A stretch of DNA of 64,000 nt from an uncultured bacterium (GCA_963805015.1 CAWDSL010000030.1:6258-70257), one strand, 5' to 3'. Counted from the stretch's first letter, positions 5,346-64,000 are shown. The notes: a model not told the origin generated them from the letters alone. Numbers and translations are program-made.

Positions 5346-7658
5346 TTACTTTACGACGGGGCCCAGGTATCGGTCCAAAAAGCCGAAGGTGTCCTTCCAA
5401 TGCTCGTTGAGCAGCCAGACGGAGTGACCGGTCGGATAGACGATCAGATGCTTGTCCTTGTCCGGAGTGCCGAAGAGACGGAATAGCGGGCGGGCGTTGG
5501 TCTCGAGCGGGTAGAAGGCGTCGTACCGCCCGTTCTGCATCAGCAGGGGCGTCTTGACCCGGGGAGCGAAATGGACGGGATCCCATTCGGGCGAGCCCAG
5601 TTCCGGGACGTAGGTTTCCCAATAGAATCCGCCTCCGACGAGGATCGCCGCCTTGAACCGTCTTTCGAGCGCCAGGTGGACCGGCGCGGCGTAGGCCCCC
5701 CAGCTCAGTCCTTGATAAGCGATCCGGGCCGCGTCGAGATCCGGCCTCGTCTCCAGGTAGTCGAGAACGCGGGACAGCTCCCGGTCGTGCCGGATCATAC
5801 GGTCCCTCAAGTACCGGCGGTCTCGCGGCGGGAGCGGCCTGACCCGCCGCTCGAAGGTGTTCCAGAACACGGGGAAGACGAACGCCCGCCCCTTCCTCGT
5901 ATAAAGCTCGACCTCGCGGCTCTTGACCGATCCGTATTCGAAGACCGAGTCCAGCTGCAGGGCGGAAGATCCGGGGAAGTAGACGATCGATTGGTAAGGG
6001 GGCGGCGTCCTCCGGGGCAGGAAAATGTAGGCGTAGATGCGCTCGCCGCCGCCGGCGTCCAGGAACGAGACTTTCTCCAAGACGGTATCGGCCGACCAGT
6101 CCTGACGGGATTCGACACGGGGGTCGAGGTCTGTCTTGACGTATCCGTAGAGCGAACGATAGGCTTCGAAGACCGCGTCCGAGCAAGGCGTCATCGCGGC
6201 ATAATCCGGCTCCGGCGTGACTTTCAGGGGGGCGTCGCAAGGCGCCGGCCCCTCGGCCTCCGTCACGGGCTTCATGCACCGGAAGCCGAAGTTGTCGGAG
6301 CGCAGGAACGCCGGGTAGGAATCGAACGCGAAGCTCGCATACTGGGCCTCGTTCCAGGCCCCGCCGAGGTTCGCCCGCCGTCCTCCGGCCTCGTTCGAGC
6401 ACCATTCCTTGGCGTTGCCCGCCAAGTCGTAAGTGCCGAAGGGGCCCAGGCCCTTGTATGCTCCGACCGGGGCGAGCGCCCGGCCGTCGAAGTTGCTCGC
6501 GGGTATGACGTAATCCGTGTCCGTCAGGATCCCCGCGGCCAGGCACCAATGATAGACGCTCGGCAGGCGCTTGCCGGCGAATTCGGCGAACGCGGCGGCC
6601 TCGTACCAGCTGATCCCCGTGACGGGATCGTCATCCCGGCCCGCCGGGCAGGCGCCGGACTCCCAGGTCGCCGGGCCCGGCCTTCCCGTGCGGTCCACGA
6701 ACGCGGCCATCGATTCCTCCCAGCCGAGCGTCCGTCCATCCCGCACGAACGGGTGTTTCCAGTAGCGCCGGTCCGCGTAACCTCCCGCTTCGACGAAGGA
6801 CCGGTACTGCCGGTTGCTGACCTCGAACCGGTCGAGCCAGAAATCGCCGAGCGTCGCCCGGGGAGAGAAGCGGACCTGGAATTGGATGAGCGCGACCGTG
6901 TCCCCCGGGACCCGGACCATGCCTTCGGGCGCGGCCGCCGCTTCGGCGAGCGTGATCCGCAGCTTCTCCGGCTCGCCGGGGCGGACCTGGGCGCTCCCCT
7001 CGGCGGTCGCGTACCCGGGCCGCCCGACCCGCCATCGCTTGGGTCCGGCGGACAGGCGGCAGTCCGAGACGGGGGTCCGTCCGAGGGGCTGCCAGTCCGC
7101 GTCCTGGCTGCCGTAGGGCCGGACGCTCAGGTCGGCGCCGGGCGGATCGGTCTCAAAGGAAAGGGAGCCGGAAACCAGGGGCATGAGCTGGCGCAGACGC
7201 GGGTTTCCGGGAACGATCCTCTCGACGCGCGCGGCCAGATCGTAAGCCCGTTCCTTTTCGGGCGTAAGGACGAGCCTTTCGATCTCCGGTATCGCGACGT
7301 CGTTGGCCCAATCGGCCCTGGCGTTATGAACGGCGAGGAGGACGACGGTGAACGCGCCGGCGGCGGTCAGGATCGAGAGAGCGGCGATCAGGCGCTTGTT
7401 CCATCGCGGCAGCGTGGGGAGCGCCTTCCCGTGCCCCCGGCCCTTGGGCGGAGCGTCCGCCGGGCCGGACCAGTGGCGCCGCTCCTCGAGCCAGGCGTCG
7501 AGCTCGTCCGCATAGGCGAAGACGCGGGACTTTGGGGAGCCGTCCAGGCGGTGAATGGGCAAACCGTGCTCGCGCTCCCAGAGCTGACAGGTCCGGGCGT
7601 TGCGGCGGAGATAGGCGGAGATCTCCTTCCAGGATTCGAGAATAGTACGCTTCTCCAT
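5346..7658 (-). CDS. Membrane-anchored protein: N-terminal 'SWKEI' HTH-like domain, TM, PEGA-like, FGE-sulfatase (SUMF1) domain, C-terminal alpha/beta hydrolase
   Basis: LESWKEISAYL...WEREHGLPIHR; TM LIAALSILTAAGAFTVVLLAV; DRFEVSNRQY, PVTGISWYEAAAFAEFAGKRLPS, YDLAGNAKEW, GFRC; GLSWG nucleophile elbow, GRYD, PTGH. Confidence 0.85.
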   Translation of the reverse strand: MEKRTILESWKEISAYLRRNARTCQLWEREHGLPIHRLDGSPKSRVFAYADELDAWLEERRHWSGPADAPPKGRGHGKALPTLPRWNKRLIAALSILTAAGAFTVVLLAVHNARADWANDVAIPEIERLVLTPEKERAYDLAARVERIVPGNPRLRQLMPLVSGSLSFETDPPGADLSVRPYGSQDADWQPLGRTPVSDCRLSAGPKRWRVGRPGYATAEGSAQVRPGEPEKLRITLAEAAAAPEGMVRVPGDTVALIQFQVRFSPRATLGDFWLDRFEVSNRQYRSFVEAGGYADRRYWKHPFVRDGRTLGWEESMAAFVDRTGRPGPATWESGACPAGRDDDPVTGISWYEAAAFAEFAGKRLPSVYHWCLAAGILTDTDYVIPASNFDGRALAPVGAYKGLGPFGTYDLAGNAKEWCSNEAGGRRANLGGAWNEAQYASFAFDSYPAFLRSDNFGFRCMKPVTEAEGPAPCDAPLKVTPEPDYAAMTPCSDAVFEAYRSLYGYVKTDLDPRVESRQDWSADTVLEKVSFLDAGGGERIYAYIFLPRRTPPPYQSIVYFPGSSALQLDSVFEYGSVKSREVELYTRKGRAFVFPVFWNTFERRVRPLPPRDRRYLRDRMIRHDRELSRVLDYLETRPDLDAARIAYQGLSWGAYAAPVHLALERRFKAAILVGGGFYWETYVPELGSPEWDPVHFAPRVKTPLLMQNGRYDAFYPLETNARPLFRLFGTPDKDKHLIVYPTGHSVWLLNEHWKDTFGFLDRYLGPVVK

Positions 7659-7740
7659 CCCCGTCGTTCAGTTTTGACTAGGCTGACCTTCGTGACCTGT
7701 ACTGATTCTGGGACGAACGTCCGAAGATGTCAAGTCCGTC

Positions 7741-8082
7741 TCAGGTCAGGAGCGCCCGGAGCTTTCCGAGGGCCTCCTCGACGGTGGTCGCGGGAAGCGA
7801 GCCGACCGGCTCGGCCCGCAGGGCGCGCCAGTCGAAGCATTCGGCCTGGTCGGCCAGCAGGACGCCCCGGACCGGGAGATCCGGGGGCAGGGGGACTTCG
7901 AAAGGATAGCCCTTGGCCTCGGTGACGACGGGACAGAGGATGGCCAGTCCGACCCGGGCGTTGTAGGCTTGAGGGGAGAGGACGACGGCGGGGCGCCGGC
8001 CGTCCTGGGCCCGGCCCGATCGCGGCGCGAACGAGACCAGGACGAGATCGCCGCGCTCCGGAACATAGAAGACCGGTTTCAT
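7741..8082 (-). CDS. mazF: MazF/PemK-family toxin with degenerate active-site positions
   Basis: YVPERGDLVLVSF...GRRPAVVLSP..YN...KGYPFEV...GVLLADQ; ATG at 8082 overlaps the antitoxin stop (ATGA). Confidence 0.9.
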   Translation of the reverse strand: MKPVFYVPERGDLVLVSFAPRSGRAQDGRRPAVVLSPQAYNARVGLAILCPVVTEAKGYPFEVPLPPDLPVRGVLLADQAECFDWRALRAEPVGSLPATTVEEALGKLRALLT

Positions 8083-8303
8083 ATATTCCCGGTCTCCCAG
8101 GCGGGGTGGATGTTGTCGTCGGTCACCTTGTCGAGAAGGGCCGCGAGGTCCCAGGACCTCTCGCGATCGGACCGGACGACGAGGGCGCCTTCGTCGAGCG
8201 TCATCTCGACCGGTGCGGCTTCCTCCCAATCCAGCTCTTCGGCGAACGACTTGGGGATGCGGACGGCCAGGCTGTTGCCCCACTTCTGGACGCGCGTTTT
8301 CAT
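8079..8303 (-). CDS. mazE: MazE/AbrB-family antitoxin
   Basis: MKTRVQKWGNSLAVRIPKSFAEEL...LAALLDKVTDDNIH. Confidence 0.92.
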   Translation of the reverse strand: MKTRVQKWGNSLAVRIPKSFAEELDWEEAAPVEMTLDEGALVVRSDRERSWDLAALLDKVTDDNIHPAWETGNI

Positions 8304-8330
8304 TTTATGAGCCAAAATGTATCTACAAAG

Positions 8331-8359
8331 AGTATACAATTTTAAAAAGTATTAGTCAA
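8331..8359 (-). promoter_or_regulatory. sigma70 promoter of mazEF
   Basis: TTGACT-N17-TATACT on the minus strand, with GTATCTAC/GTATAC operator-like elements adjacent. Confidence 0.75.
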
Positions 8360-8402
8360 ATCAATACGCTCCGAGGCCGGGGGCGGCCGTGAGGGGTCTT
8401 CC

Positions 8403-9635
8403 TTACTTCTTGGCCAGGGCCTTTTCGATCTCCGCGAGACCGACGCCGAACACCCGCCGGGCGATCGCGTCGAGCGCCTTCTCCGGCCCCGCGAAGTGCA
8501 TGGTCGTGTGGACGTGGGTCAGCGTCCCGCCGGGCCCCAACGCCGCGGCCGGCGAGGACGACTCGAGCTCGTAGAACGGGCCGAGGGGCTTGGCCCCGGG
8601 CGCGGCCGGCCCGTCGTTGTAGCTGTTGACGACGTCCCCGGCGAAGGGCTTCTCCTGGATCTCCCACATCGAGTTGACGTAGTCCGTCGCGCCCTCGGGC
8701 ACGGTCAGGTGGACGACCGTCAGAACGCCGTTGGCGGCGTCGTAGCTCCCGGCGAAAGGCCTGACCCGCCGCGGGGAGATGCCGATCTTGCTCCGGTACT
8801 TGCCGTCGCCGCTGAAGAAGAGGACGCCCTCGCTTTCCCGGACGGCCAGGCGGCCGGCCGGGACCTTGCCGAAATAAGCGTCGTTGACGGCCGGGCCCAG
8901 CTCCGCCTCCGGCCCGGTCTTGAACGGGACCACGATGGTGGTCGCCGGCGAGGGATTGAACATGCCCAGGATCCAGATCGAGAGCAGGCCCGCGTCCTTG
9001 GTCCAGGCGCTCGCCCCGAGGTTGGTGATGTTGTTGTCCGAGGCGTAGGCGACCATCTTGACGCCGTCCGGGACCTCGATGCCCAGGGCCGCGACTTCGG
9101 CCTTGCCGAGCAGGCGGATCTCCCGGTTGACCTCGAGGTCGAACGTCGTCCCGGAGTAGTTCACGAGCGATATCGTCTTGCGGAAGTGGATGCGGTCGGC
9201 GTCTTTGGCCACGACCTCGAAGGCGCCCTCGTTGACGGCCGGCGGGGTCCACCAGTGGTCGAGGTCGAAGGGATCGCCCTTCTTGAAGAAGATGGAGAAC
9301 TGCCCGCCCTCGGGCCCGAGCCAGAAGCGGTCCTCGCCGCCGAAGGAGTTCATGTGCGGGTTGTTGACGCCCGAGGCGATGGCCTCGCGTCCGATCCAGC
9401 CGAAGCTCAGCCCGTCCGGACCGGCGGCCGTGCTGGTCATGACCCGGCCCTGGAGGTCGGGATTGACCGCGATCCGGGCCTGCCCGTCGGCGCTCTCGAG
9501 CACGACGACCTTGGTGTGCGTTTCGAGGAAGGCCAGATCGTCCTTGAACAGGACGCCCTCCGGTGCCTTGGCGGGCTTGGCGCAGGCCGCCGCTAAAAAG
9601 AGGATCAGTAACGCCGCTCCGATACCGTATCTCAT
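8403..9635 (-). CDS. DUF6786-like lipoprotein (galactose-mutarotase-like fold suspected)
   Basis: Lipobox LAAAC; GRVMTST..G.DG.SFGWI, FGGEDRFWLGPEGGQFSIFF, GPFYELESSSPAA recalled as typical of the family. Confidence 0.7.
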   Translation of the reverse strand: MRYGIGAALLILFLAAACAKPAKAPEGVLFKDDLAFLETHTKVVVLESADGQARIAVNPDLQGRVMTSTAAGPDGLSFGWIGREAIASGVNNPHMNSFGGEDRFWLGPEGGQFSIFFKKGDPFDLDHWWTPPAVNEGAFEVVAKDADRIHFRKTISLVNYSGTTFDLEVNREIRLLGKAEVAALGIEVPDGVKMVAYASDNNITNLGASAWTKDAGLLSIWILGMFNPSPATTIVVPFKTGPEAELGPAVNDAYFGKVPAGRLAVRESEGVLFFSGDGKYRSKIGISPRRVRPFAGSYDAANGVLTVVHLTVPEGATDYVNSMWEIQEKPFAGDVVNSYNDGPAAPGAKPLGPFYELESSSPAAALGPGGTLTHVHTTMHFAGPEKALDAIARRVFGVGLAEIEKALAKK

Positions 9636-9681
9636 GGGTAACTCCTTTGCGCGTATCAGCCCCCATTATAAACAAATAAGC

Positions 9682-9712
9682 AAATCGGGGACACAATACC
9701 TATTCACCAATT
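9682..9712 (+). repeat. Exact 31-bp copy of the left arm of the 3063-3093 palindrome
   Basis: AAATCGGGGACACAATACCTATTCACCAATT is identical at 3063-3093 and 9682-9712. Confidence 0.9.
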
Positions 9713-10111
9713 TCCGCCCGGTTGATACACGGCATATCAGCAGGCCGGCGGGTCGAATAGATCTGGGCCTATCGGTTCATATGGGGGAATAGGCCCCTTT
9801 ACCCATTTACGTTGCCGGCGCCCGGCCTATGGTGTGAGAGCGATGAAAAAGACCGGGACGACCATGGACGCTTCCATCCAACAAACCAAAGGAGGTGGTG
9901 GCCACTCCGCACAGAAGCACCCCCATTCCATCGGGTCGGGAGTGATCTCGCCGTGTTCCTCGCGAGGCCCTTCGGCCTCCCCCGCCGCGACGCGCGGAGT
10001 CTCGCTCCAGGCAAGGACATCCAGACGCGCCGGCCCCAAAGCCCGGCGCGCGGACAGAGAGAACGGCCCGGCCGGCCCTGTCGGGGTTACGGTCCGGGAT
10101 AAGGAGAAACC

Positions 10112-13100
10112 ATGAAGTCTCTCAGATCGCTTTCCATGACGGCTTTCGCCGTCCTTCTCCTGGCCGGGGTCCTCTCAGCCCAGGCTCCGACAGCCGGCAG
10201 GATCATCGGCACGGTCAAAGACGACCAGGGGGCGCCGCTCCCCGGCGTCACGGTGGAGGCGAAGGGCACGCGCCTCGTGGGCATCGCGGCCGCCGTCTCC
10301 GACGCGAACGGCGTTTACCGCCTGCTCGCCCTTCCCCCCGGCGCCTACGCCATCACCTATAGCCTCCAGGGCTTCGGCGCGGTCGTCCGCAACGATATCG
10401 TCCTGGCCGTCGAACAGGCGCTGGTCGTGGACGTCTCCCTGAAGCCCAGCGCCGTCGAAGAGGAGGTCGTGGTCGTCGGCCAGGCCCCGCTCATCGACGT
10501 CAAGAACACGGCCCGGGGTCAGGTCCTCACGGCCGAGACCTTCAACGCCCTGCCCAAGGGCCGCAGCTTCGATTCGCTGGTGACCATCCTGCCGGGCGTC
10601 CAAAGCGAGGACGACCTGCTCGACGGCATCTCGGTCGACGGCGCCTCGGGGGCCGAGAACGTTTTTTTCGTCGACGGGACGGACACCTCGGACCTGAACG
10701 GCGGGACCCGCAAGCAGAACGTGGTCTTCGATTTCGCCGAGGAGGTCCAGTTCAAGGCCTCCGGCTATAACGCCGAATACGGCGGCTCGGTCGGCGGCGT
10801 CGTCAACGTCATCACCCGCTCGGGCGGCAACGCCTTCCACGGCGAGCTCGTCGGCTACTATTCGGGCACGGCCCTCGAGGGCCAGCGCCGCGACAAGCTG
10901 TCGCTCGACCTGAGCGATGACGATCTGGCCCGCTATTACCCCTACGACGAGTACGTCGGCAAGGACACGGAGCACGCCTACGAAGTCGGCTTCCTCCTCG
11001 GCGGCTACGTCGTCAAGGACCGTCTCTGGTTCTTCGGGGCCTTCACTCCGGGGATCTTCCAGCGGAACCGGGTCATGGACATGGCCATCCAGGGCGATAC
11101 GGGTGTCAATTCCTATGATAGGACCGAGGAAAGCTGGAACGCCTCCTTCAAGCTGACCGCCCAGCCCCTGAAGAACCTCCGGGCCGGGGCCAGCTTCGTC
11201 ATGAACCTCTTCAAGTACAAGGGCGGCAGCGATCCCATGACCTACCCGTCCGACCAGACCTACGCCGCCACCTCCAACGCGACGGGCGACTACAACAACC
11301 TCGGCTACTCCTATCCGAACTACTCGGTCACCGCCTATGCCGACCTGACCCTCAGCAACAACGCCCTGCTCAGCGTCCGCGGCGGATACTTCTACAGCAA
11401 CATGAACAACCGCGTCGCGCCCCTGCCCTCGACCCCCTACTACGGCTTCCGCCTCGAGCAGCCCGGCGGCTACGCCTTCGTCACCAACGACATGTTCCCC
11501 GAGATCCCGGACGAGCTCGTCCATCCGGCGGGCTGGCAAAACTTCCCCCGGGCCAACGTCCTGGGCCTCGTCCAGCGAATGGACGGACGGCTGAGCGCGA
11601 ACGCCGATTTCACGTACTATCTCAATCTCGGCGGCGAGCACGCTTTCAAGGCGGGCGTCCAGTTCATGCGCCGCACCCAGAACGTCAACGAGACGGGCCA
11701 GGTGCCGGTCATCTACCTGGGCTGGGACCAGGAGCTCGACGCCTACGGCACGAACTACGGCCGCGGCACCTACGGGTACTATGCCGTCCGCGGCTTCGCC
11801 GACGCCGGTCCCTACGGCGACAACTACCTCGTCAACATGAACAGCTGGTCCCTGTATCTCCAGGACAGCTGGACGATCGCCGGCCGGCTGACCCTCAACC
11901 TCGGCCTGCGCGCCGAATCGGAGTACCTGCCGAGCTACACGACCGATCCGCTCTTTTCCAGCATCCAGAAGCCGATCAACTTCTCCTTCGCCGACAAGCT
12001 CGCGCCCCGCGTCGGCTTCGCCTACGACGTCTTCGGCGACTCGAGCCTCAAGGTCTTCGGCAGCTTCGGCATCTTCACGGACGTCATGAAGCTCAACATG
12101 GGCGCCAACGGCCTGGGCGGCTTCAAGTGGCAGAGCGCCTATTACACCCTCGACGATTGGGATTATACCCAGATCGGTATCGACGGCAATTTCCCCGGCA
12201 CCCTGCTCACGATCATCGACTTCCGTCCGCCCCTCTTCGACGTCATCGACCCCGACATGAAGCCCTTCACCCAGCGGGAGATCTCCTTCGGCCTCGAGAA
12301 GAAGCTGGCCGAGGACACTTCGCTCTCCCTGCGCCTGGTCAACAAGAAAGTCCTCTGGGCCATCGAGGACGTCGGCGTCCCCATCGAGAACTACTACTAC
12401 GGCAATCCCGGCAGTGAATTCATGCACAACATCTTCGAGGAATGCCGCGAGAGCGGCCTGCTCCTGCCCGGGACCCCGGACGCGCCCAAGGCCAAGCGGG
12501 ACTATTACGCCATGAACCTGTCGCTCGAGAAGCGCTTCAGCCACAGCTGGCAGGGCGGCGTGTCCTACACGCTCAGCCGGCTGGCCGGCAACTACAGCGG
12601 GCTGGCCTCGTCCGACGAGGACGGCCGGAACTCGCCGAACGGCGAGAGGTTCTGGGACATGTGGCACCTGTCCTACGACAAAGCGCTCAATCCGATCGAC
12701 GGCGCCCTGCCGACCGACCGGACGCATTCCCTCAAGGCTTACGGCAGCTACGCCCTGCCCTTCGGCCTGACCGTGGGCCTGGTGGCCAACGCCTACAGCG
12801 GCACTCCGATCACCGAGGAGTGGAACGTCGATTCGGTGGGCTACTTCCCGTACAACCGGGGCAACATGGGCCGGACGCCGTTCGTTTTCTTCGCCAACGG
12901 CTACGCCGAGTACGAAGTCCGGCTGGGCGGCCGCAAATCGCTCCGGTTCAACGTCAACGTCGACAACATCTTCAACGCCCGGACGGCCCAGCGGATCTAT
13001 TCGCTGAAGTACCGGTACAACATCTCGCCCGGCGACGCGGCGCTGCTCGCGCTCGATTGGCAGCCGGACCCGGACGAGCCTCTCGATCCGCGATTCGGGA

Positions 13101-13159
13101 TGCCCTACAGCTTCATGGCCCCCATTTCCGGGCGCTTCGGCGTGCGGTTCACGTTCTAG
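10112..13159 (+). CDS. TonB-dependent receptor (Oar-like) with carboxypeptidase-regulatory-like N-domain
   Basis: Signal peptide, GRIIGTVKDDQGAPLPGVTVE, plug motif NAEYGGSVGGVVNVITRSGGN, LTLNLGLRAE, terminal RFGVRFTF; RBS AAGGAG. Confidence 0.92.
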   Translation: MKSLRSLSMTAFAVLLLAGVLSAQAPTAGRIIGTVKDDQGAPLPGVTVEAKGTRLVGIAAAVSDANGVYRLLALPPGAYAITYSLQGFGAVVRNDIVLAVEQALVVDVSLKPSAVEEEVVVVGQAPLIDVKNTARGQVLTAETFNALPKGRSFDSLVTILPGVQSEDDLLDGISVDGASGAENVFFVDGTDTSDLNGGTRKQNVVFDFAEEVQFKASGYNAEYGGSVGGVVNVITRSGGNAFHGELVGYYSGTALEGQRRDKLSLDLSDDDLARYYPYDEYVGKDTEHAYEVGFLLGGYVVKDRLWFFGAFTPGIFQRNRVMDMAIQGDTGVNSYDRTEESWNASFKLTAQPLKNLRAGASFVMNLFKYKGGSDPMTYPSDQTYAATSNATGDYNNLGYSYPNYSVTAYADLTLSNNALLSVRGGYFYSNMNNRVAPLPSTPYYGFRLEQPGGYAFVTNDMFPEIPDELVHPAGWQNFPRANVLGLVQRMDGRLSANADFTYYLNLGGEHAFKAGVQFMRRTQNVNETGQVPVIYLGWDQELDAYGTNYGRGTYGYYAVRGFADAGPYGDNYLVNMNSWSLYLQDSWTIAGRLTLNLGLRAESEYLPSYTTDPLFSSIQKPINFSFADKLAPRVGFAYDVFGDSSLKVFGSFGIFTDVMKLNMGANGLGGFKWQSAYYTLDDWDYTQIGIDGNFPGTLLTIIDFRPPLFDVIDPDMKPFTQREISFGLEKKLAEDTSLSLRLVNKKVLWAIEDVGVPIENYYYGNPGSEFMHNIFEECRESGLLLPGTPDAPKAKRDYYAMNLSLEKRFSHSWQGGVSYTLSRLAGNYSGLASSDEDGRNSPNGERFWDMWHLSYDKALNPIDGALPTDRTHSLKAYGSYALPFGLTVGLVANAYSGTPITEEWNVDSVGYFPYNRGNMGRTPFVFFANGYAEYEVRLGGRKSLRFNVNVDNIFNARTAQRIYSLKYRYNISPGDAALLALDWQPDPDEPLDPRFGMPYSFMAPISGRFGVRFTF

Positions 13160-13168
13160 ACGATCTGC

Positions 13169-13235
13169 GAGGGGAGTGACGCGGAGCCCGTCACGGCCCG
13201 CCCCAATCCCGGAGGGGCGGGCCACCCCTCTTTTT
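13169..13235 (+). terminator. Intrinsic terminator with three-way-junction architecture
   Basis: Outer GAGGGG/CCCCTC stem encloses GTGACG/CGTCAC and GGCCCGCCCC/GGGGCGGGCC hairpins, followed by a T-tract. Confidence 0.7.
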
Positions 13236-13260
13236 CTTGCCTTCCCCCGGCCCGGGGACG

Positions 13261-15694: not shown

Positions 15695-15791
15695 CCCGGT
15701 TTCACCTCGCTCCTGGAGCCAGGGCGGTCATGACCTGACGAACGCATCCATGATATCGCCCGTCCGGAGGGGTGTCAAACGGGTGAACGGG

Positions 15792-19523: not shown

Positions 19524-19525
19524 GC

Positions 19526-19595: not shown

Positions 19596-19636
19596 TTCCT
19601 GAGTTCGGTGCTAAGATAGCCGGCGCCGGGGAGACC

Positions 19637-50495: not shown

Positions 50496-50541
50496 GCCCC
50501 TCGGATACCCATAATTTCCGGAATCCTCTATGATAGAAGGG

Positions 50542-53382: not shown

Positions 53383-53410
53383 TCCGCGAACCGGCCTCCG
53401 GCGCTCTCCC

Positions 53411-53913: not shown

Positions 53914-53932
53914 CGCGGTGACCTCAGCCGAA

Positions 53933-53961
53933 AGCGTACCAAAAAGCGTACGTTCAGTCAA
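53933..53961 (-). promoter_or_regulatory. yefM-yoeB promoter with two GTAC operator cores 12 bp apart
   Basis: TTGACT-N17-TACGCT; GTAC at 53936 and 53948, resembling the paired TGTACA boxes of the E. coli yefM-yoeB operator. Confidence 0.7.
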
Positions 53962-54117
53962 GCGCGGCGCCTCGACGGGCTCCGTCCATCCCCATGAGGA
54001 CCTCCAGATCGCTCGCGTTCTACTTATCAGACGGCTCTCGGGGACGGCCACTTCTCAGCGTATGGCCGCACAAGCCGCTCTCAAACCGACTAAACTCTAA
54101 AGCCTGGAGGAAGAACC

Positions 54118-54888: not shown

Positions 54889-54911
54889 GGCCCTCGGGCG
54901 GGCGCCCCGGC

Positions 54912-55395
54912 TCAGCCCTTACCCGGCGGGTCGGGCTGGGGCGAGAGCTTGATGAGCGCCTGGCGGTTGAAGATGCGGATCGAGGGAAACTCGATGACGG
55001 CGGGGAGCCAGGTCACTTCGTCGTCGATCTTGATGTAGTCCGTGGGCGGAGCCCCCTTGACGGCCTTCGCCACCGGCGCCTTGAGCACGCCGTTGGTGCC
55101 CGTGGCGATGAGCTTGCCCTTGGCGTCTCGGATGCCGCAGTCGCCGATGATCCCACAGTCCCCGAGGATGCCCGCGGCGCCCGGGCGCCGCCAGGGCCTT
55201 GGCCGCTTTCTTGAAGGACGTGATCGAGAAGACCGTGCCGTCGGGGGTGGTCAGCTTGAAGCTGCCCGGCCCGAGCTTCTCGCACTTCGTCCCCTTGGGG
55301 ATGGCCACGGACTTGCCCTCGGCCAGGGCCGTGCCCGCGACCGAGACGAGGAGCAGCGCTCCCACGACCAGAACCAGGAAGGCAGACCTCTTCAT
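54912..55395 (-). CDS. Small secreted protein ending LSPQPDPPGKG, one apparent +1 frameshift at ~55190
   Basis: Signal peptide; repaired frame ILGDCGIIGDCGIRDAKG...DYIKIDDEVTWLPA...LIKLSPQPDPPGKG, stop at 54912-14. Confidence 0.6.
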
Positions 55396-55587
55396 GAAAC
55401 CTCCTTCTCTGCTGCCGGCGAGATAACCCTTATGCTTACAATATGGGTCCGGAACGGGGACCTGTCAAGAGGCCGCCGGGCGGGCCAAGGGACCAGGGAG
55501 GCGGCTCGCTCGGGCGGGGGATTGACCCCTGGTCCGCGCTAGGCTACCATCATGCCGTCATCGCGCCGTCAATAGGAAGGGGTCGCC

Positions 55588-56385
55588 ATGAAACGCCTGA
55601 TCGGGCCGCTTTCCGCCGTGTTTCTCGGGATCTTAAGCGCCGCATCGTGCTCGAGGCCGGCCAAGCCGGTCGTCGTGAGCCAGGTCGTAGGGCCGATCGA
55701 GGTCGATAGCTATCTCCTTTACGACGCCAAGAGCGGGGAGGCCGCGCTCGTCGACGCGCCCGGCCCCATCGACCGGCTGGAGTCCGAGATCGGGGCGAAG
55801 GGGCTCTCGGTAAAATACATCTTCGTCACCCACGCCCACTGCGACCACGTCATCGGCCTGACGGCCCTCCGGCAGCGCTTCCCCGGGGCCAAGGTCTGCT
55901 TCTCCCGCGAGGAATACGAGGACATGCCCCTCTACGAGCGCTGGGAGGAGAAGCTCCCGCCCCAGGAAGTGGCGCGGATGAAGACCGCCCTGGGGCCGGG
56001 CGGGGATCCGGCCCTGGCCGCCCTGCTGACCCTCGATTTCGACAGCATCGGGAAGCCGGACATCTTCGTGTCCGACGGCCAGGTCTTCGAGCTGGGCGGC
56101 CTCGAGGTCCGGGCCATTCTCGCTCCGGGCCATTCCCGGGGCAGCGTGTGCTATCGGGCCGACGGCGTCCTGTTCTCGGGCGATGTCCTCTTCGCCGGGC
56201 AGGTCGGGCGGACCGATCTCATGGACGGCGGCAGGGAGGCCATCGTCAAGTCGGTGCGCCGCCTCTACGCCGAGCTTCCCGACGGCACGAAGGTCTATCC
56301 AGGCCACGGGCCCGCGACGACGATCGGCGCCGAAAAGAAGGGGAACGAGGAAGTCTCCGCGACTTCCATCGCTATCAAGAACTGA
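55588..56385 (+). CDS. MBL-fold metallo-hydrolase (glyoxalase II-like), lipoprotein
   Basis: THAHCDH, APGHSRGS, FSGDVLF, GRTDL, YPGHG. Confidence 0.92.
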   Translation: MKRLIGPLSAVFLGILSAASCSRPAKPVVVSQVVGPIEVDSYLLYDAKSGEAALVDAPGPIDRLESEIGAKGLSVKYIFVTHAHCDHVIGLTALRQRFPGAKVCFSREEYEDMPLYERWEEKLPPQEVARMKTALGPGGDPALAALLTLDFDSIGKPDIFVSDGQVFELGGLEVRAILAPGHSRGSVCYRADGVLFSGDVLFAGQVGRTDLMDGGREAIVKSVRRLYAELPDGTKVYPGHGPATTIGAEKKGNEEVSATSIAIKN

Positions 56386-56389
56386 GCTC

Positions 56390-57514
56390 TCAGAGCTTCC
56401 AGATGATCTTGTACCGCTTGAGGACGGGATTGCCGTCGTCGTCCTCCTCGGCCGCGTAGAGCCGGTCCTTGTGGATGAGCGGCTGCTTGTCCGGCACGGC
56501 GGCCCGGGCGATGTAGCGGCCTTCCGGATCGAAGACGTCGAGGTAGTAGCCTCGCCGCCCCGGCGGGCGCTCCCAGCACAGGACGTAGACGCGGCCGGCG
56601 TCGTCGGCGAGGAGATAGCGGAAGGCCGGGTAGTGCTTGGGGACCTTCATGTTCTGCAGGACGGCCGGAGGGGCGCCTTCCGTGCGTTCCTCGACGTCCT
56701 CCTTGGCGACGGCGACGGGATCCCGGTCCATTTCGATCCTGAGGACGAGCTTTCCCGCGGCGTCGTACCTGCGGAGCTCGCTCTTGACCGCGTAGCCGCA
56801 GACGACGCCGCCGTCCGGGAGGATGGCCCAGCGGACGATCGGGAAGAACGGATCGAACCCGTCCCTGGACGAGTTCGCGAGCGGGGACGACTCGAGCGCG
56901 TAGAGCGCCTTGAACCCGGCGTCGACCTTCCTCAGCTCGTAGCGCGGATTCTCCTCCTCCATCTGGAGTAGATAGACGTAGAAATTCCCCGCCGGATCCG
57001 GCCGGGCGTCGGCGAAGCTCATGGAGGCCACCGAGATGTCGCGGACATGCCGGCCGTCCGCCTTGAAGATGAGGACGCTCCGCCGGACGTCGACCACGGC
57101 CAGTCCGTCCGGATCCATCCAATGGATCGACATGGGCATGGTGTATTCCCCGGGGCCCTGGCCGGTCTTTCCGATCGAATGCAGGAACTTCCCCTCACGG
57201 TCGAAGGCTTTGACGGTCTTGTCCTTCTGGTCGAGAACGAAGATGGTCCCATCGGGGCCCACGGCGATCGAATTGATCGAGGCGAAGACGTAACCGGCAG
57301 CCCCCTCGCCTCCGATGGCCAGCTCCTCCACGAGGGAGAAAGCGCCGGCTCCGTAGACGGGCTTGGCGGGGTTCTTGACGACGACGACCTGGCCCTCTTT
57401 CTCGATGCGGCCCTTCCAGTCGGCCTGCTTCTGGGGAGAGGCCGGGCCGGCGAAGATGATGGCCGCCGCCAAAAGAAGGAAAATCGGACGTGCGGACGAA
57501 GGCGAAGCTCTCAT
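56390..57514 (-). CDS. Secreted 6-bladed beta-propeller protein
   Basis: Signal; WKGRIEKEG, IAVGPDGTIFVLD, GQGPGEY, DVFDPEGRYI. Confidence 0.8.
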   Translation of the reverse strand: MRASPSSARPIFLLLAAAIIFAGPASPQKQADWKGRIEKEGQVVVVKNPAKPVYGAGAFSLVEELAIGGEGAAGYVFASINSIAVGPDGTIFVLDQKDKTVKAFDREGKFLHSIGKTGQGPGEYTMPMSIHWMDPDGLAVVDVRRSVLIFKADGRHVRDISVASMSFADARPDPAGNFYVYLLQMEEENPRYELRKVDAGFKALYALESSPLANSSRDGFDPFFPIVRWAILPDGGVVCGYAVKSELRRYDAAGKLVLRIEMDRDPVAVAKEDVEERTEGAPPAVLQNMKVPKHYPAFRYLLADDAGRVYVLCWERPPGRRGYYLDVFDPEGRYIARAAVPDKQPLIHKDRLYAAEEDDDGNPVLKRYKIIWKL

Positions 57515-57620
57515 GGACACCTCCCCCGAGAACACGCGTTGCTTCCCTTTAATGATTATGGGCCGGCGCCCGGGGGCTGTCAAATGGGAGCGAGTCCAGG
57601 CTCGCCGGTCGGCGCCGGTC

Positions 57621-58853
57621 TTATCCCAGCGCCACTTCGCCGATCTTGATCTTGTCCCTGTCCGCGACGCCCAGTCCCAGGCTTGCGGCGAGGTCCAGGA
57701 AAGCGGCGCTCCGCCGCCTGGGATCGTCCACCTGCTGGGTGCCCCGGGCCATCCGCTCCTTGACGATGACGTCGTGGGCCACGGCGTCCACGGCCACGGG
57801 GTCGGTGCCGAGGAGCAGGAGGTTGGCGTCGTAGATGAACTTGGGATTGGCCCCGGGCCCGCCGTCGTAGCAGGCCTGGAGCCCGTCGACGACGTTGAGG
57901 ACGACCTTGTCCCGGAGCACGGGGAAGGCGCAGGGCTCGGCCACCGACTTCATCCAGAGCTTGTGCAGGCGCCCGGTGTTGCTGAGCGCGCCGTAGGACA
58001 GGTTCTTGAGGCAGCAGGTGGTCGTGGCCCCGGCGTTCTTGAGGATGGGGACGTTGACGATCTTGGTCACGACGTCCGTGACGATCTTGCTGAAGTAGGA
58101 GGCCTTGCCTTCGTTGATCATGTAGCCCAGGGTCTCCGCGTCGTACTTCTGCTCGACCTCGGCGACGTAGGGCAGGGCCTCCCGGTCGATGTTGTCCTTG
58201 GCCCAGAGCTCGCCCTTCTCGTCGTAGAACTTGCCGTTGGGGCCCATCATCTCCGTGCCCAGGATGCGGATGCCGGGGAAGCGCTCGGCCGTGAACCCGG
58301 CCTCCGTGAGCTGGAACAGGCGCCGGTCCCAGATGACGATGTTCTCCTTGCGGACGCCCGCCGCGAGCAGGCCCTCGATAATGGCGTCCACGACCTCGGG
58401 CTTGGTCGAGAGCAGCTTCTCCCCGATGGGATTGACCTTGATGCCGACGACGTCCTTGGGCCCGACGAACTGGCCCCAGGCCTTGCCCGGCTTCTTCTGT
58501 CCGGTGAGCTCGGCCATGCCGGCGGCGAGCTCTTTGCGCACCCGGGCCCCGTCGATGGGCTGCCCGACGGGGTTGGCCCCGGTCTTGACCCGGACCACCT
58601 TGCCCGGGTACTTCCCAGGCAGCGACCCCGCCACCCGGGGGATCGAGCGGACCTCGTCGATGTTGGTCTTGATGTCGGGAGGGGCGGCAGGCACCTTGCG
58701 GTCCTCGGGCTTATCCTGGCCTATCAGGCGGGGGGCGATGGCCGCCCCGGCCGCGGCGACCGCGGCGGAGCCCAAGAACTTGCGGCGTGAGAATTTATCC
58801 GAAGGACAAGCGTCTTTCTCTCCTGTGAGGGTCACGATGTCGTCTTTGCGCAT
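57621..58853 (-). CDS. DUF362 domain protein with Tat signal
   Basis: SRRKFL; DVVGIKVN, IVIWDR, IVNVPILK..G..T.CLKNLSYG, DPVAVD. Confidence 0.88.
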   Translation of the reverse strand: MRKDDIVTLTGEKDACPSDKFSRRKFLGSAAVAAAGAAIAPRLIGQDKPEDRKVPAAPPDIKTNIDEVRSIPRVAGSLPGKYPGKVVRVKTGANPVGQPIDGARVRKELAAGMAELTGQKKPGKAWGQFVGPKDVVGIKVNPIGEKLLSTKPEVVDAIIEGLLAAGVRKENIVIWDRRLFQLTEAGFTAERFPGIRILGTEMMGPNGKFYDEKGELWAKDNIDREALPYVAEVEQKYDAETLGYMINEGKASYFSKIVTDVVTKIVNVPILKNAGATTTCCLKNLSYGALSNTGRLHKLWMKSVAEPCAFPVLRDKVVLNVVDGLQACYDGGPGANPKFIYDANLLLLGTDPVAVDAVAHDVIVKERMARGTQQVDDPRRRSAAFLDLAASLGLGVADRDKIKIGEVALG

Positions 58854-58880
58854 GGGGGCCTCCTGGGGGTGGATGGGGGA

Positions 58881-58909
58881 AGTATAGGGGAGGGAGGGGG
58901 AAATGGCAA
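58881..58909 (-). promoter_or_regulatory. sigma70 promoter of the DUF362 gene within a G-run tract
   Basis: TTGCCA-N17-TATACT on the minus strand. Confidence 0.6.
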
Positions 58910-58992
58910 TGGAGGTTGGTTGATTCCTGGAAAAGTGGAACCTATAATCAACTAGATGGGAAGAACACTACAGTCTGGGGGAAACTTTAATC

Positions 58993-61834
58993 TTGGATAA
59001 AAGGGCCATTGCTTATTGGGGCGCTCTTTCGTTCTTCTTGAGCGTCTTTGCTTTGGACGCAAAGCAGAGTCCCGTGTCCTTTTTTGATGATATAGCAAAT
59101 TCAACTCGGCTATCAGCACAAGGCGAGCACATTAAAGCGCTCGCTCTGCTTAAGAATCGGCTTGAACTTACCCGTCTTGATCACGTGCCATTTGCCGAAC
59201 AAAAATGTCTGGTGAGACTGGCAATGCTTCAATGGGATATCGGAAATATTCCTGAGTCCCTTCTTTGCTTTCTTGATGCCAGAGAAGCTTATCGCAAAGT
59301 GAGCGATAGGCGGTCCGATGAATTCTGTTCTAAATGCATCGAGATTATCAGGCTCTATGCCCAAGCTAAAGAAGAGCGGATACGCCAGCATTATGATCTT
59401 TCGACAAGGTGGCTTGAGCGGGCGATCCAATTGGGGAGGGAGACCGGATTTCCGAATTTTTGAACTGAAATGCTTAAGGCAACTAGGCGCCAATTCGTGG
59501 GATAGAAACCAATTAGCCGATTTCTTTAGGTGCAACGCGGCTGGATTGAAATTAGCGGTGGATTTCAACAACAAAATCGAGGAGGGGCGATATCTGAATA
59601 ATATTGGGATCTATTATAAAAGGACCGGATATCTTTCGCACGCCGCACAATACCTAGAGAAGGCGCAGAAGATAGCCAGGCTCTCATGCGATAAGCCAAC
59701 CGAAGCGGAAAGTCTTAGCAATCTCGGACTGCTTTATCGTGATATTGGCGATAGCGGCAAAGCACGCTCTTTTCTATACAGCGCCTACTGTATCGATAAT
59801 GAAATCGGTGATTTGAAGGCGCTGGCCATTGATTTGGTTAATATGGCTGCCGTCTCACTAAGAAAGGGTATCGATGAAAAAAGTCAACAAGAGCTGATCG
59901 ATGCTTTGGATTTGTATCAACGAAGTTTGAATACAGATCGATTGGAGCCCTATTTCAAGTTCGTCGCTCTCAATAACAAAGGAGTCATACTCAACGAACA
60001 GGGTATGCATGTTGAAGCCCGTGACCATTTCCTGCGGGCTATTAAGGTCCTTGGCGAGAATGAGCATCTTCTGGAAAGATGCTCTGCGCGTAACAATATC
60101 GCCTCTACCTATCTGTATGAAAACGATTATAAGAACGCCTTAGATCATTTCCGGCTCGCTAGGGAAATGTGTATTACGGCTTTTCCATCCTATCCTTTGA
60201 TGGAATCATATGTAGGGATGGGCCAATGTTATGAGAACAGCCATGACAACACAGCGGCGCTTTTATGCTATCAAAACGCCATGGAAGTCCTGGGCGGGCA
60301 AATCGCCAAGATCTCCTCTGACATATTTATGATCGGCTATGCACGTAACAAGTACAACGCCTTCCATGCGATGATTAATATCCTTATCGAAGAGTCCGGC
60401 ACACGGCTCTCTCGGCCTGTATTTGCTAACTTGTTCAGCGCCATCGAAAAGGCAAAAGCTAAAGCATTCCTGGAGAAGCTACGAAGATCTACGAACAAGA
60501 GTCATCAAGGCGACCAACTAGATACGATAAGCAGAATAGGTACCAATCGCAAACTCGAAAACTATGAGGGCGAAGAAGAAAACAACCTCATGATGAGTCC
60601 TTCGGAAAATCCAATTCAATGGGAGTTTGATGGACGCACGAGTCCGGATCTCCTCCTCGAGGAAACGCAGAAGCGCTTGATCGACGATAAGACAATTGTA
60701 CTGGAATACTTCCTTGGAGACGATCGATCCTGCCTTCTTTCGATTTCTAAAGGAGCATTCCGATTGTATCTTTTGCCGGGCCAATCGGAGATATTTCGAT
60801 CAATACGAGGATTCCTAAAGACATTGTCCGACCCTGGTATCCAGGGTAGTTATGGCCAGGAGGCCAATGAGCGAATCGTTAGAACACTTCTTCCTTCGTC
60901 TCTTCTCGAGGAATTGAAGGGATATCATTCCCTCATTATCATGCCCGACGGAGTGCTCAATTATCTTCCTTTTGAGGCATTGCGCATTACCGATGGAAGG
61001 GACGAGCGTTTCTTGATTGAGACCTGGACGATATCGTATTGTCCTTCCGTATCGATCATGAAGACACTGCAAAATAGAAGGACCGGAGGGCGCAGGGACC
61101 AGCCGATCTTAGCGATCGGGGATATCCGATATGATCGAGACCCTGGCGGAAAAAGTAAAGTGGCCGGCGGCGGAAGCAGAGATGATCAAACGAATAGCTA
61201 TGGAGCCGGTGGCGGCGCATTACATGATTTGCCATTTAGTAAAAGGGAAGTCGCCACTATCACGGAGCTTTTCTCGAAAACGAGAGTCCGTGTATTGCTG
61301 GGACACGACGTAAATGAAAGGGCTGTTAAAAGTTTGCCATTAAGGGAATATGGAATAATTCATTTTGCCTGCCATGGGTATTACGACGAAATCGATCCTT
61401 TAATGACAGCGTTGATGTTAACATCTGGTCCGGCAGAGATAGAAGATGGTCTTCTACGAATAGAGGAGATCGAAGATTTGGATATTGGAGCCGACCTGGT
61501 TGTTTTGTCAACTTGCCGTTCCGGGAGGGGGTATCTCGAAAACGGCGAGGGACTCATTAATCTGGCTCGTCCATTCTTCTTCGCCGGTGCTCGTTCTGTA
61601 ATTGCATCCCTTTGGCCGATCAGTGACAAATCAACGGCGAGGTTTATGGGGGAATTCTATAGAGCTCTTAAAAACGGCCATAAGATCGGGGATGCTTTAA
61701 GGAACGCCAAAATCAGGATGATCCAGTCCTCTCTGGCTCATCCCTTTTTCTGGGCGGGCTTTGTGCTCCAGGGAAATCCGGTGATCTCGAAATCACGCGT
61801 CATCTCTGGGAACATCCCTAATCCTCTGTCATGA
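58993..61834 (+). CDS. Signal-peptide TPR-CHAT (caspase-like) protease, one apparent +1 frameshift in a T5 run (59457-59461)
   Basis: N-terminal hydrophobic signal; TPRs (EGRYLNNIG, AESLSNLG, ARNNIA); EKAKAKAFL; IIMPDGVLNYLPFEAL; IIHFACHG (His); LVVLSTCRSG (Cys); AGARSVIASLWPISD; HPFFWAGFVLQG. Confidence 0.92.
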
Positions 61835-62516
61835 CAAACCTGGCCAAATTAGATTCCTTGATATCATCGGCTCCAGAATAGGCCGTGACCATCCAAAAGT
61901 ATGCTTTTCCCGGCTGCAGTATTGACCGGGCTTCTTCTGAGAATTGAATTTGAGGAACTTCTGTTTTGCCGCTTGTCCAGACCGGCAGCAGAGCGTCATC
62001 AAAGAGCTCTAGGATATAATAGCGGGCCGAAGCGTAAGGGTTCCATCGAAAAATTAATTTATCTGTGATATTGTGCGAAACCGTCGGATATTCCAGAATG
62101 ATATCCATATTCTCTTCTCTGAACTGATATGAGACATAATTATGTTGCGTAATAACCAATATTGAAACGGCGATCATTAAGCAGCCGGCGATCAGCGACG
62201 AAACACGCGCAGTAAACAATTGCCGCGGACGATAATGAAGGGGACTTTTCAAAAAGCGTGAACTATGGTCCTCAGTACTCGATTCTTGCTTTGTTTGTTT
62301 GTCGTACTCCATGATCGTTATTAATAAATCGAAAGCTCCTCGACACTTGGGACATCCCGATATGTGGTCGACAATTTTAGTCTTCAAGCGATTCGATGCT
62401 GAAGGCGCGAATGAAGCGACCAATTCCTTTGAAGAAGGGCAATGGGTTTTAGACGAAGCATTTTGCGCGGGGATCTTCCGCAAGAGATCTAGGAGATCTT
62501 TATTGCTCATGTTCAT
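61818..62516 (-). CDS. ZAS (zf-HC2) anti-sigma factor with TM and extracytoplasmic Ig/FN3-like (DUF928-reminiscent) domain
   Basis: HCPS...HISGCPKC (HxxxCxxC); TM VSSLIAGCLMIAVSILVIT; FRWNP..ARYYILELFD...LQPGKAYFWMVTAY; overlaps the ECF stop. Confidence 0.8.
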   Translation of the reverse strand: MNMSNKDLLDLLRKIPAQNASSKTHCPSSKELVASFAPSASNRLKTKIVDHISGCPKCRGAFDLLITIMEYDKQTKQESSTEDHSSRFLKSPLHYRPRQLFTARVSSLIAGCLMIAVSILVITQHNYVSYQFREENMDIILEYPTVSHNITDKLIFRWNPYASARYYILELFDDALLPVWTSGKTEVPQIQFSEEARSILQPGKAYFWMVTAYSGADDIKESNLARFVMTED

Positions 62517-63045
62517 CGGGGATTCCTGCGTTGTGCAAATATTTGCGAATATCGGCCAAGCCTCTATAGAGCAAGTTACGGATCTTATCTTGGCTCATAT
62601 TGAGATAGCTGGCGATCTCACGAATATTCAGGTTTAGAAGATATAGTTTTACAACTCGCCGTCTGGACTTGATGAGATGTTCCACAGCGTTCCATAGAGC
62701 CTCTGACATAGCGCTTTTGCGGATAGCCTCGCCGTCGTAATATGACTTTGTTTCTGAGATATGGTTATGCTTTTCATGTCGGAGCAGTTCCTCTTCTCGT
62801 CGGTTCTTACGGAATTGGTCTATGATCGCCGTGTAAACGATCTTTTTAATATATGGCCCATGATTATGGATCACCCTATCCGTGCATATAATTTTCCATA
62901 TCCGGACTTTCACTTCTTGGACGACGTCCTCGGGATCTAAGCCGTATTTTGGAAGATTGTAATTATGAATAAGAGAGTTTATTAACCGATCGTAGCCATT
63001 AAGAATTCCGTGGAATTCTTCTTCCCTTTTTCGGCTAACGTCCAT
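62500..63045 (-). CDS. ECF-type RNA polymerase sigma factor
   Basis: PEDVVQEVKVRIW (region 2), YTAIIDQFRK, REIASYLNMSQDKIRNLLYRGL (region 4). Confidence 0.92.
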   Translation of the reverse strand: MDVSRKREEEFHGILNGYDRLINSLIHNYNLPKYGLDPEDVVQEVKVRIWKIICTDRVIHNHGPYIKKIVYTAIIDQFRKNRREEELLRHEKHNHISETKSYYDGEAIRKSAMSEALWNAVEHLIKSRRRVVKLYLLNLNIREIASYLNMSQDKIRNLLYRGLADIRKYLHNAGIPDEHEQ

Positions 63046-63150
63046 AGAAATTTCAGCAGCCTGAATGCATATGTTGTTATTCTATTAATATAGATGAAAT
63101 CAATGAAGGGGAATTCTCACTCGAGATTCTAAAAATTAGCTGGAAAGCTA

Positions 63151-63173
63151 GCATGTCCAGGTAATGGACATGC
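63151..63173. promoter_or_regulatory. 9-bp inverted repeat, operator candidate, in the divergent intergenic region
   Basis: GCATGTCCA-ggtaa-TGGACATGC. Confidence 0.5.
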
Positions 63174-63360
63174 ATTTGTCAACTAGAATTGGCAGATTTT
63201 TTAAATGTCCTCATGGCGAATTCAAGAGTGATCTAAGTGCTAAAAATTGAGCTATATAATGTTTAGCGGAGTAACACAGAAAGGCCCAATTCTCTGCATG
63301 TGATCTCATCGTTGACATCTTGGACCGGATAAATAAGATATTGGTTAATTAAGCGCATAG

Positions 63361-64000
63361 ATGCACGAACTCTCCAAAGACAACCTCCTCCGCTCCTGGA
63401 AGGACATCTCCGCCTACCTGGGGTGCGATGTCCGGACCTGCCACCGCTGGGAGGAAAGGCACGGCATGCCCGTCCACCGGGCCGAGGGGGGAGAGCGGAA
63501 ATCCCCCGTTTTCGCCTATAAGGACGAGCTCGACGCCTGGTTCAAGGAGACCTTCCGGAACTCCCACCCGAACGGGGAGAAGGCCAAGCCCGAGCGCCCC
63601 CGCCTGGCCTGGATCCTAGGGATCGCCGCCGTGGTCGTCCTGGCCGGGGCCTTCGCCCTCTACAGGGAGGTTGGGGCTCGCCGCCAGCCGGCCGGTTTCG
63701 AGATCGAGGGCTCCGTCCTCATCGTCAAGGACAAGTCCGAGCGCGAGCTCTGGCGCTTCGATACCGGGGTCGACAACCTCGAGACCGACGCCTACTACCA
63801 TGCGAACTTCCAGGTCATCCACAAGAGCACGGGCAACATCCTGCCCATCATCGCCATCCGGGACATCGACGCGGACGGGGACCGGGAAGTGCTTTTCGCC
63901 CTCAGGCGGCAGTCCGACCAGACCGGCGAGGGGCTGCTCTATTGCTTCGACCGCAAAGGCGAAAAACGATGGGAGTTCAAGGCCGGCGGGCCGCTCGTCT
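63361..64000 (+). CDS. 3'-partial membrane protein: 'SWKDI' HTH-like domain, TM, FG-GAP / propeller-like extracytoplasmic domain (absent from the ORF track because it has no stop)
   Basis: My translation: MHELSKDNLLRSWKDISAYLGCDVRTCHRWEERHGMPVHRAEGGERKSPVFAYKDELDAWF...LAWILGIAAVVVLAGAFAL...DIDADGDREVLFA...LYCFDRKGEKRWEF. Confidence 0.85.
   Translation, partial: MHELSKDNLLRSWKDISAYLGCDVRTCHRWEERHGMPVHRAEGGERKSPVFAYKDELDAWFKETFRNSHPNGEKAKPERPRLAWILGIAAVVVLAGAFALYREVGARRQPAGFEIEGSVLIVKDKSERELWRFDTGVDNLETDAYYHANFQVIHKSTGNILPIIAIRDIDADGDREVLFALRRQSDQTGEGLLYCFDRKGEKRWEFKAGGPLV

Follow-up and report, generated by a model that had tools for sequence, protein, structure and literature searches.

The window analysed here is a stretch of 64,000 nucleotides from an uncultured bacterium (GCA_963805015.1, CAWDSL010000030.1:6258-70257). 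It holds two genes, which we call gene 1 and gene 2, whose products begin with the same domain of about 60 amino acids (aa) and then cross the membrane once before continuing into unrelated modules. As modelled, the domain is a winged helix-turn-helix (HTH) of the MerR/excisionase/gpNu1 class. The membrane-tethered proteins that carry it, the "RTC" subgroup, are a divergent, Acidobacteriota-centred branch of the HTH_17 superfamily, for which no dedicated profile model exists. The subfamily is real and large. It combines a fold that is known with an architecture of a type that is also known, and it probably forms a new subfamily of transmembrane transcription regulators.

The shared N-terminal domain

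The features of the two genes that matter for this argument are as follows; each open reading frame (ORF) is given with its HTH domain and transmembrane (TM) helix.

5346..7658 (-), gene 1, 770 aa: HTH, TM helix, PEGA, FGE-sulfatase-like domain and alpha/beta hydrolase (ORF, Pfam, full-length homologues)
7470..7658 (-), gene 1 aa 1-63: winged HTH of MerR/excisionase type as modelled, layout b-a1-a2-b-b-a3 (AlphaFold 2 (AF2), Foldseek, profile against gpNu1)
7329..7391 (-), gene 1 aa 90-110: predicted single N-in TM helix, LIAALSILTAAGAFTVVLLAV (hydropathy scan, positive-inside statistics)
63361..64000 (+), gene 2, the first 213 of 448 aa, open at the window end: HTH, TM helix, FG-GAP beta-propeller
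63370..63558 (+), gene 2 aa 4-66: winged HTH, the same domain as in gene 1 (BLASTP alignment, AF2)
63598..63672 (+), gene 2 aa 80-104: predicted single TM helix (AF2 helix)

The full 448 aa of gene 2 were read on the genome contig, C30. The initial annotation had aligned the two N-termini, starting at 7658 on the minus strand and 63361 on the plus strand, and had placed one TM helix after each. Both observations hold. BLASTP aligns the N-termini at 43% identity over 108 aa (E 5e-23), the motif SWK(E/D)ISAYL..RTC..WE..HG(L/M)P(I/V)HR..KS.VFAY.DELDAW is present in both, and the TM helix starts about 18 aa after the domain. That annotation knew of only two such proteins, and here it falls short, since the host genome, a 3.48-Mb Aminicenantes metagenome-assembled genome (MAG) of 67% GC, carries four genes with this domain. 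The other two are a TolB-like + TPR type at C6:429978(-) and a second FG-GAP type at C17:~10905(+), and 24 positions are invariant among all four copies. The C6 paralogue (C6:428124-429978(-)) is split by a frameshift near aa 368, where a tblastn comparison with P0005 changes frame from -3 to -1 at C6:~428846. The break reflects a sequencing error or marks a pseudogene.

The domain is a winged helix-turn-helix

Evidence for the fold comes from a profile of 62 diverse family domains, which in the PDB finds the DNA-binding domain of lambda gpNu1 (1J9I) at E 6e-5 and RacA at E 1e-3, both alignments spanning the whole domain. Significance is reached only with this profile; a four-sequence profile gave none against the PDB (gpNu1 E 0.14). 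An AF2 model of gene 1 aa 1-75, with a predicted local distance difference test score (pLDDT) of 79, has the layout b-a1-a2-b-b-a3. Its best PDB matches by Foldseek are RacA, BldC, CarH, excisionases (Xis, RdfS) and gpNu1, at probability 0.96-0.99. The top matches are all MerR-like or excisionase winged HTHs, and several of these structures were solved on DNA. The sequence RTCQLWE of gene 1 lies in helix a2, and the conserved stretch R-T-(C/V)-Q-R-W-E aligns with RTIQNWQ of gpNu1, a position that we take to be the recognition helix in this class of winged HTH.

It had been suggested that the domain resembles MerR/Xis-type winged HTHs, and the gpNu1 profile match and the Foldseek run, whose matches include DNA-binding members of the class, both bear this out; it is not of the OmpR type. 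Trans_reg_C (PF00486), the OmpR-type winged HTH, does not match the window proteins at E<=1. The layout of MerR regulators, in which the winged HTH leads into a long antiparallel coiled-coil helix for dimerisation and a C-terminal domain that binds the effector, is absent as well, since the AF2 models have no coiled coil after helix a3 (to ~aa 63) but a disordered linker and then the TM helix. A redox or metal role for the Cys of RTC was considered and dropped, because the soluble class carries Val in its place (RTVQRWE).

The name of the domain is a more delicate matter. The initial annotation called it unnamed, which is true of the membrane-tethered proteins, the two in the window being below every cutoff. 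On the window proteins TIGR01764 ("excise") scores 13.3 bits against a cutoff of 28.8, and HTH_17 (PF12728) is not listed at E<=1. Other sub-threshold HTH matches in the Pfam and NCBIfam scans, namely Phage_Nu1, PrtN, MerR_1, HTH_23 and the MADS1 HTH, were likewise rejected as identifications. It is not true of the soluble relatives with tandem copies of the domain, which pass the HTH_17 cutoff of 27 bits (P0067 49.4, P0058 43.4, P0059 38.9), and one soluble relative is labelled "excisionase family DNA binding protein" by the Joint Genome Institute (JGI). Because these relatives reach HTH_17, we regard the family as a divergent branch of a known superfamily and not as a new fold.

A large and modular family

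An exhaustive profile search with the domain returned 12,044 protein clusters (at 50% identity) at E<=1e-3 and 8,665 at E<=1e-10; Aminicenantes and other Acidobacteriota account for most of them. The matches from named genomes belong to Aminicenantes, Terriglobia, Bryobacterales, Solibacteraceae, Vicinamibacteria and Thermoanaerobaculia, and one of the labels on the matching MAGs is Terracidiphilus. Within the order of the host, 37 of 41 genomes have the domain, at 1-13 copies each. Across the phylum it is present in at least 43 of 151 genomes, a lower bound because at most 40 candidates were scored per genome. We do not accept its presence outside the Acidobacteriota on the basis of two "Anaerolineales" MAG matches; these lie on contigs of 1-2 kb and score as high as Acidobacteriota genomes in the same search, so they are probably mis-binned.

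In the 197 best-scoring proteins the domain is as a rule N-terminal, and one hydrophobic helix comes after it. Behind this helix stand PEGA + FGE-sulfatase + alpha/beta hydrolase, TolB-like + TPR, a PD40/DPPIV-type propeller, or an FG-GAP propeller. Proteins of a second class lack the TM helix and carry the domain in two or three tandem copies, and further architectures are REC-PAS-2xHTH, REC-2xHTH and 2xHTH-TPR. On the HTH tree, which is poorly resolved, the four sensor classes are clustered without being monophyletic (10 label changes vs 34 with shuffled labels), and one swap from a TolB/TPR to a PD40 sensor has 98% support. Sensors have been swapped between close HTH relatives. The suggestion of a modular family thus stands, with four sensor types on one HTH tree. 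Copies can also accumulate locally: in a genome of the same order and another family (G038:C11:716972-744083), a stretch of 28 kb contains seven paralogous HTH-TM genes (open frames 573-665 aa), which is a local expansion of the family.

Membrane topology

The domain is N-terminal and there is no signal peptide. In about 150 members a hydropathy scan gives the order domain then TM helix, with the helix 6-44 aa after the domain (median 18 aa). Among 286 proteins the flank on the N-side of the helix holds more Lys + Arg than that on the C-side (3.99 vs 2.60); it is the richer of the two in 198 and the poorer in 43 (p 5e-25), as the positive-inside rule would have it. The predicted layout is therefore that of ToxR and CadC, with the HTH in the cytoplasm, one N-in TM helix, and then an extracytoplasmic module. 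This is the arrangement proposed at the outset, and both the order of domains across the family and the charge bias agree with it.

The extracytoplasmic modules and their exchange with kinases

The module behind the TM helix of gene 1 is made of three parts.

6942..7097 (-), gene 1 aa 188-239: PEGA domain (Pfam PF08308, 21.4 bits, cutoff 20.8)
6273..6884 (-), gene 1 aa 259-462: FGE-sulfatase-fold domain (Pfam PF03781, 94.2 bits, cutoff 23.3)
5349..6041 (-), gene 1 aa ~540-770: alpha/beta hydrolase with Ser652 (GLSWG), Asp713 and His745

This is the series of modules that had been read from the sequence at first, with the qualification that the hydrolase matches of gene 1 itself are below cutoff (Peptidase_S9 16.8 bits, DLH 15.1 bits); its homologues carry the precomputed annotations PF01738, PF00326 and PF05448. 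The nucleophile elbow G-x-S-x-G, the Asp and the His stand in canonical order, and the triad, said earlier to be intact, is kept in the homologues, kinase-linked ones included (Ser652 in 114, Asp713 in 112 and His745 in 115 of 116). It is plausible from this conservation that the hydrolase is a working enzyme. The FGE-fold domain is another matter. Its catalytic Cys pair is absent from gene 1, which has GGAWNEAQYAS in place of GGS..C....C, and Cys occurs in one of 116 sequences in two of the twelve motif columns and in none in the rest. We assume the position of the motif, shortly before GFRC, from human SUMF1. This domain is probably a binding domain.

Aligned over 99-100% of its length, the gene 1 ectodomain (aa 120-770) shares 43-54% identity with that of Ser/Thr-kinase-TM proteins of ~1000 aa. 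Such proteins, named by NCBI bifunctional Ser/Thr kinase/FGE-family proteins (e.g. P0295), have the same PEGA, FGE-fold and hydrolase with its triad, and carry a cytoplasmic Pkinase domain of ~330 aa where gene 1 has its 60-aa winged HTH. In the host genome TolB-like/TPR modules are found on kinases and, in the C6 paralogue, on the HTH. Because both kinds of sensor recur on kinases, a given sensor can bear either the 60-aa head or the Ser/Thr kinase, and the two are interchangeable. In response regulators the domain instead takes the C-terminal position after REC and PAS. The idea that an enzyme serves as a sensor module survives only in part: the triad is intact and conserved, but the module is not special to the HTH family because many kinases share it.

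The second protein had been assigned an FG-GAP or propeller domain, and this assignment is sound. FG-GAP_3 scores 27.6 bits against a cutoff of 26.9, and the AF2 model (pLDDT 88) has an all-beta region at aa 112-425 that matches beta-propellers by Foldseek at probability 1.0 and E down to 1e-6. Homologues of this ectodomain found by a word-indexed search are all ~440 aa, one length class, and are named "VCBS repeat-containing protein" or "hypothetical". At its C-terminus gene 2 departs from its orthologues over ~25 residues (orthologue consensus ...GIRYWNG..W..EP), and this part is poorly modelled (pLDDT <50), so a frameshift near the 3' end is possible; the divergent end lies at ~70880-70965 on the contig, equivalent to ~64620-64707 and just outside the window.

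Comparison with known systems

ToxR, TcpP and CadC share with the window proteins a cytoplasmic N-terminal domain of DNA-binding type, a single TM helix and an extracytoplasmic sensor. The difference is in the head, which is OmpR-type (Trans_reg_C) in ToxR and CadC and MerR/excisionase-type here. The HTH_17, TIGR01764 and gpNu1 (1J9I) domains have the same fold as our family and detectable homology to it; the RTC subgroup differs by its fusion to a TM helix and sensor modules, in place of recombination or packaging functions, and by falling below cutoff. BldC of Streptomyces (6AMA/6AMK) and RacA of B. subtilis (5I44), among the best structural matches, are MerR-type winged HTHs without a coiled coil or effector domain. 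Unlike the window proteins, both are soluble and neither is tethered by a TM helix or fused to a sensor. On DNA, BldC forms head-to-tail multimers along direct repeats, an arrangement similar to the tandem domains of the soluble relatives found here.

It is important to realize that HTH_17 and MerR domains on TM-tethered regulators have been counted before. A census of transmembrane transcription regulators built on Pfam models includes 151 HTH_17, 386 MerR and 350 MerR_1 proteins among 50,302 (Demey et al. 2023, PMC10269533). It also contains a CadC-like Trans_reg_C,PD40,PD40 architecture (PMC10269533), and such PD40/TolB-like sensors parallel the PD40 and TolB/TPR members of the present family. 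The window proteins would have been missed by the census because they score below its Pfam models. Our literature search returned nothing specific on this domain as an output module or on this subfamily, which is probably an uncatalogued class of membrane-bound gene regulators.

Acidobacteriota, Aminicenantes included, are abundant in soils and sediments, rarely cultured, and poorly understood in their regulation. More than 8,000 clusters escape the Pfam DNA-binding models, so membrane-bound one-component regulators are under-counted in this phylum. Many members of the family at present bear the label "TPR repeat protein", "VCBS repeat-containing protein" or "hypothetical", and a dedicated hidden Markov model would improve annotation at once. 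The exchange of head and kinase on identical ectodomains is a natural experiment in which one extracellular signal would be routed to phosphorylation or to DNA, and the 60-aa head could be a compact module for synthetic transmembrane sensors.

Role of the family

We consider it fairly likely that genes 1 and 2 encode transmembrane one-component transcription regulators in which the winged HTH is the signalling output module; the DNA binding, activation by dimerisation, transcriptional output, signals and targets that this entails are what we infer. The domain is found on sensors shared with Ser/Thr kinases and on REC proteins, a pattern that fits a signalling output module and not a passive anchor. 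In our proposal the ectodomain (PEGA, FGE-fold and Ser-Asp-His hydrolase in gene 1, the FG-GAP propeller in gene 2) would bind or process a ligand in the envelope or outside the cell. This event would change the oligomeric state or the geometry of the protein across its single TM helix, and two or more winged HTH heads could then bind DNA from the membrane. The soluble relatives would reach the same pairing of heads through tandem copies in one chain; because they are tandem, paired heads are the likely working unit.

Several points weigh against this proposal. No Pfam or NCBIfam HTH model reaches its cutoff on either window protein, and the Foldseek E-values of the 75-aa model are weak (~0.07), the latter because the domain is so short. 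Domains of the gpNu1 and Xis type are often architectural DNA binders and not transcription factors. The median linker to the membrane is short and limits the reach to DNA. No common motif emerged when 8- and 10-mers were counted, symmetrically for the two strands, in the 260 nucleotides (nt) upstream of 82 family genes; the words found were GC-rich and generic, none of them in more than 11 genes, and therefore gave no evidence for a shared autoregulatory site. Finally, the association of gene 2 with the sigma-factor cassette described below is confined to one genus, with no such adjacency in genomes beyond it, so it may be inherited by descent and not functional.

One could argue that the head has no transcriptional role at all and is a RacA-like tether between the DNA or nucleoid and the membrane, an architectural bender, or a domain for protein interaction, the proteins being mainly membrane-anchored extracytoplasmic enzymes or binding proteins. 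RacA, the top fold match, is a chromosome anchor, gpNu1 and Xis are architectural binders, the 82 genes have no shared operator, and the conserved triad means that the ectodomain of gene 1 may have an enzymatic job of its own. However, a plain TM helix would be sufficient for anchoring, and the sharing of the ectodomain with Ser/Thr kinases, and of the HTH with REC receivers, points to signalling output and not to passive anchors. We regard this view as unlikely.

A second alternative keeps the transcriptional output and changes the mechanism: the proteins would be latent regulators, and a signal at the ectodomain would lead to cleavage and to a soluble winged HTH that acts on DNA away from the membrane, as with factors controlled by regulated intramembrane proteolysis (RIP). 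The short tether makes access to DNA from the membrane awkward, and a protease is encoded close to gene 2, in the following cassette.

62500..63045 (-), ECF (extracytoplasmic function) sigma factor, divergent from gene 2 (Pfam)
61818-62516, HxxxCxxC (ZAS) anti-sigma factor, in the ECF cassette near gene 2
59318-61834, TPR-CHAT protease, convergent, exported, in the ECF cassette near gene 2
63046..63360 (no strand), intergenic region between the divergent ECF sigma gene and gene 2, no more than a candidate control region

The HTH gene adjoins this cassette, on the strand opposite to the ECF gene, in all 13 of the same-genus genomes that have an ECF orthologue (14 loci in all); the gap between them is about 0.2-0.45 kb in 13 of the 14 and 2.2 kb in one. 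Against release by cleavage, neither a site-2-protease gene nor a conserved cleavage motif was identified, ToxR, CadC and TcpP function while tethered, and a single freed winged HTH would lack the pairing seen in the tandem soluble relatives. We find this mechanism improbable, slightly more so than a non-transcriptional head.

Returning to regulators that act from the membrane, a bolder form of the proposal would join gene 2 and the divergent ECF cassette into one envelope-signalling unit. The winged HTH would bind the shared intergenic region, for instance at the palindrome TCTATtaatATAGA, and set the expression of the ECF operon according to the signal at the propeller; across the family, Acidobacteriota would have a direct transcriptional read-out alongside the Ser/Thr-kinase paralogues that bear the same sensors, and in the FGE/hydrolase members the catalytic turnover of an external substrate would serve as the signal. 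We offer this as speculation and hold it to be doubtful.

Chance or low complexity as the source of the N-terminal similarity can be dismissed, and so can faulty ORF calling, even though a high-GC genome yields many spurious long ORFs: the pairwise E is 5e-23, thousands of homologues have the same domain-TM layout, and the AF2 models are confident.

Gene neighbourhoods

The palindrome TCTATtaatATAGA (63081-63094) occurs once in the genome and is conserved at 4 other loci; the element TTGACA-N16-TAAGAT (63312-63339), upstream of gene 2, is promoter-like. The ECF cassette (window ~58900-63300) is a sharp island of low GC, 0.45-0.49, in a genome of 0.667; gene 2 has 0.658. The same contrast is seen in six other genomes, where the GC of the cassette is 0.38-0.58 and that of the HTH gene next to it 0.60-0.64. 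Upstream of the ECF sigma gene is a perfect 9-bp inverted repeat, GCATGTCCA-N5-TGGACATGC in the minus-strand reading (63151-63173), 3 nt downstream of a TTGACA hexamer. Its sequence is not conserved elsewhere, and some loci have a different GC-rich palindrome at the aligned place.

A survey of 80 loci turned up no partner gene that the family keeps throughout; each orthologue group has a synteny of its own. The ECF cassette goes with gene 2 orthologues, uroporphyrinogen-decarboxylase-like genes stand beside the C17 type, and a 120-aa membrane protein follows some TolB/TPR types. This conserved protein of ~120 aa (MRLALDSKKVLALSMTALVLLF...) is encoded downstream of the HTH-TM gene, on the same strand, at L010, L013, L015, L016, L017 and L021. 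The gap is 20-80 nt at L013, L016, L017 and L021 and ~1.4 kb at L010 and L015. Among these loci only those with L010/L016-type lengths and L017/L021 (595-596 aa) resemble the TolB/TPR class, and they do so by length alone. A giant protein of DUF4062 type (N-terminus VFxSSTFRDM) was considered as a partner of gene 2, since it is found downstream of orthologues at L033, L039 and L042, and was rejected as it is absent beside gene 2 in the host genome.

No recurring neighbour of gene 1 orthologues came out of the neighbourhood survey. Downstream of gene 1 is a 569-aa ORF (3138-4847(-)) whose C-terminal half scores strongly for ankyrin repeats (Ank_2 190 bits); the true start of this ORF is uncertain, given that the N-terminal ~300 aa are R/G/P-rich and overlap a long ORF at 4037-4798. 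Directly upstream of gene 1, on the same strand, lies a mazEF pair, MazE at 8079-8303 and MazF at 7741-8082 (-), whose ORFs overlap by 4 nt and which score 46.4 bits with MazE_antitoxin and 72.6 bits with PemK_toxin.

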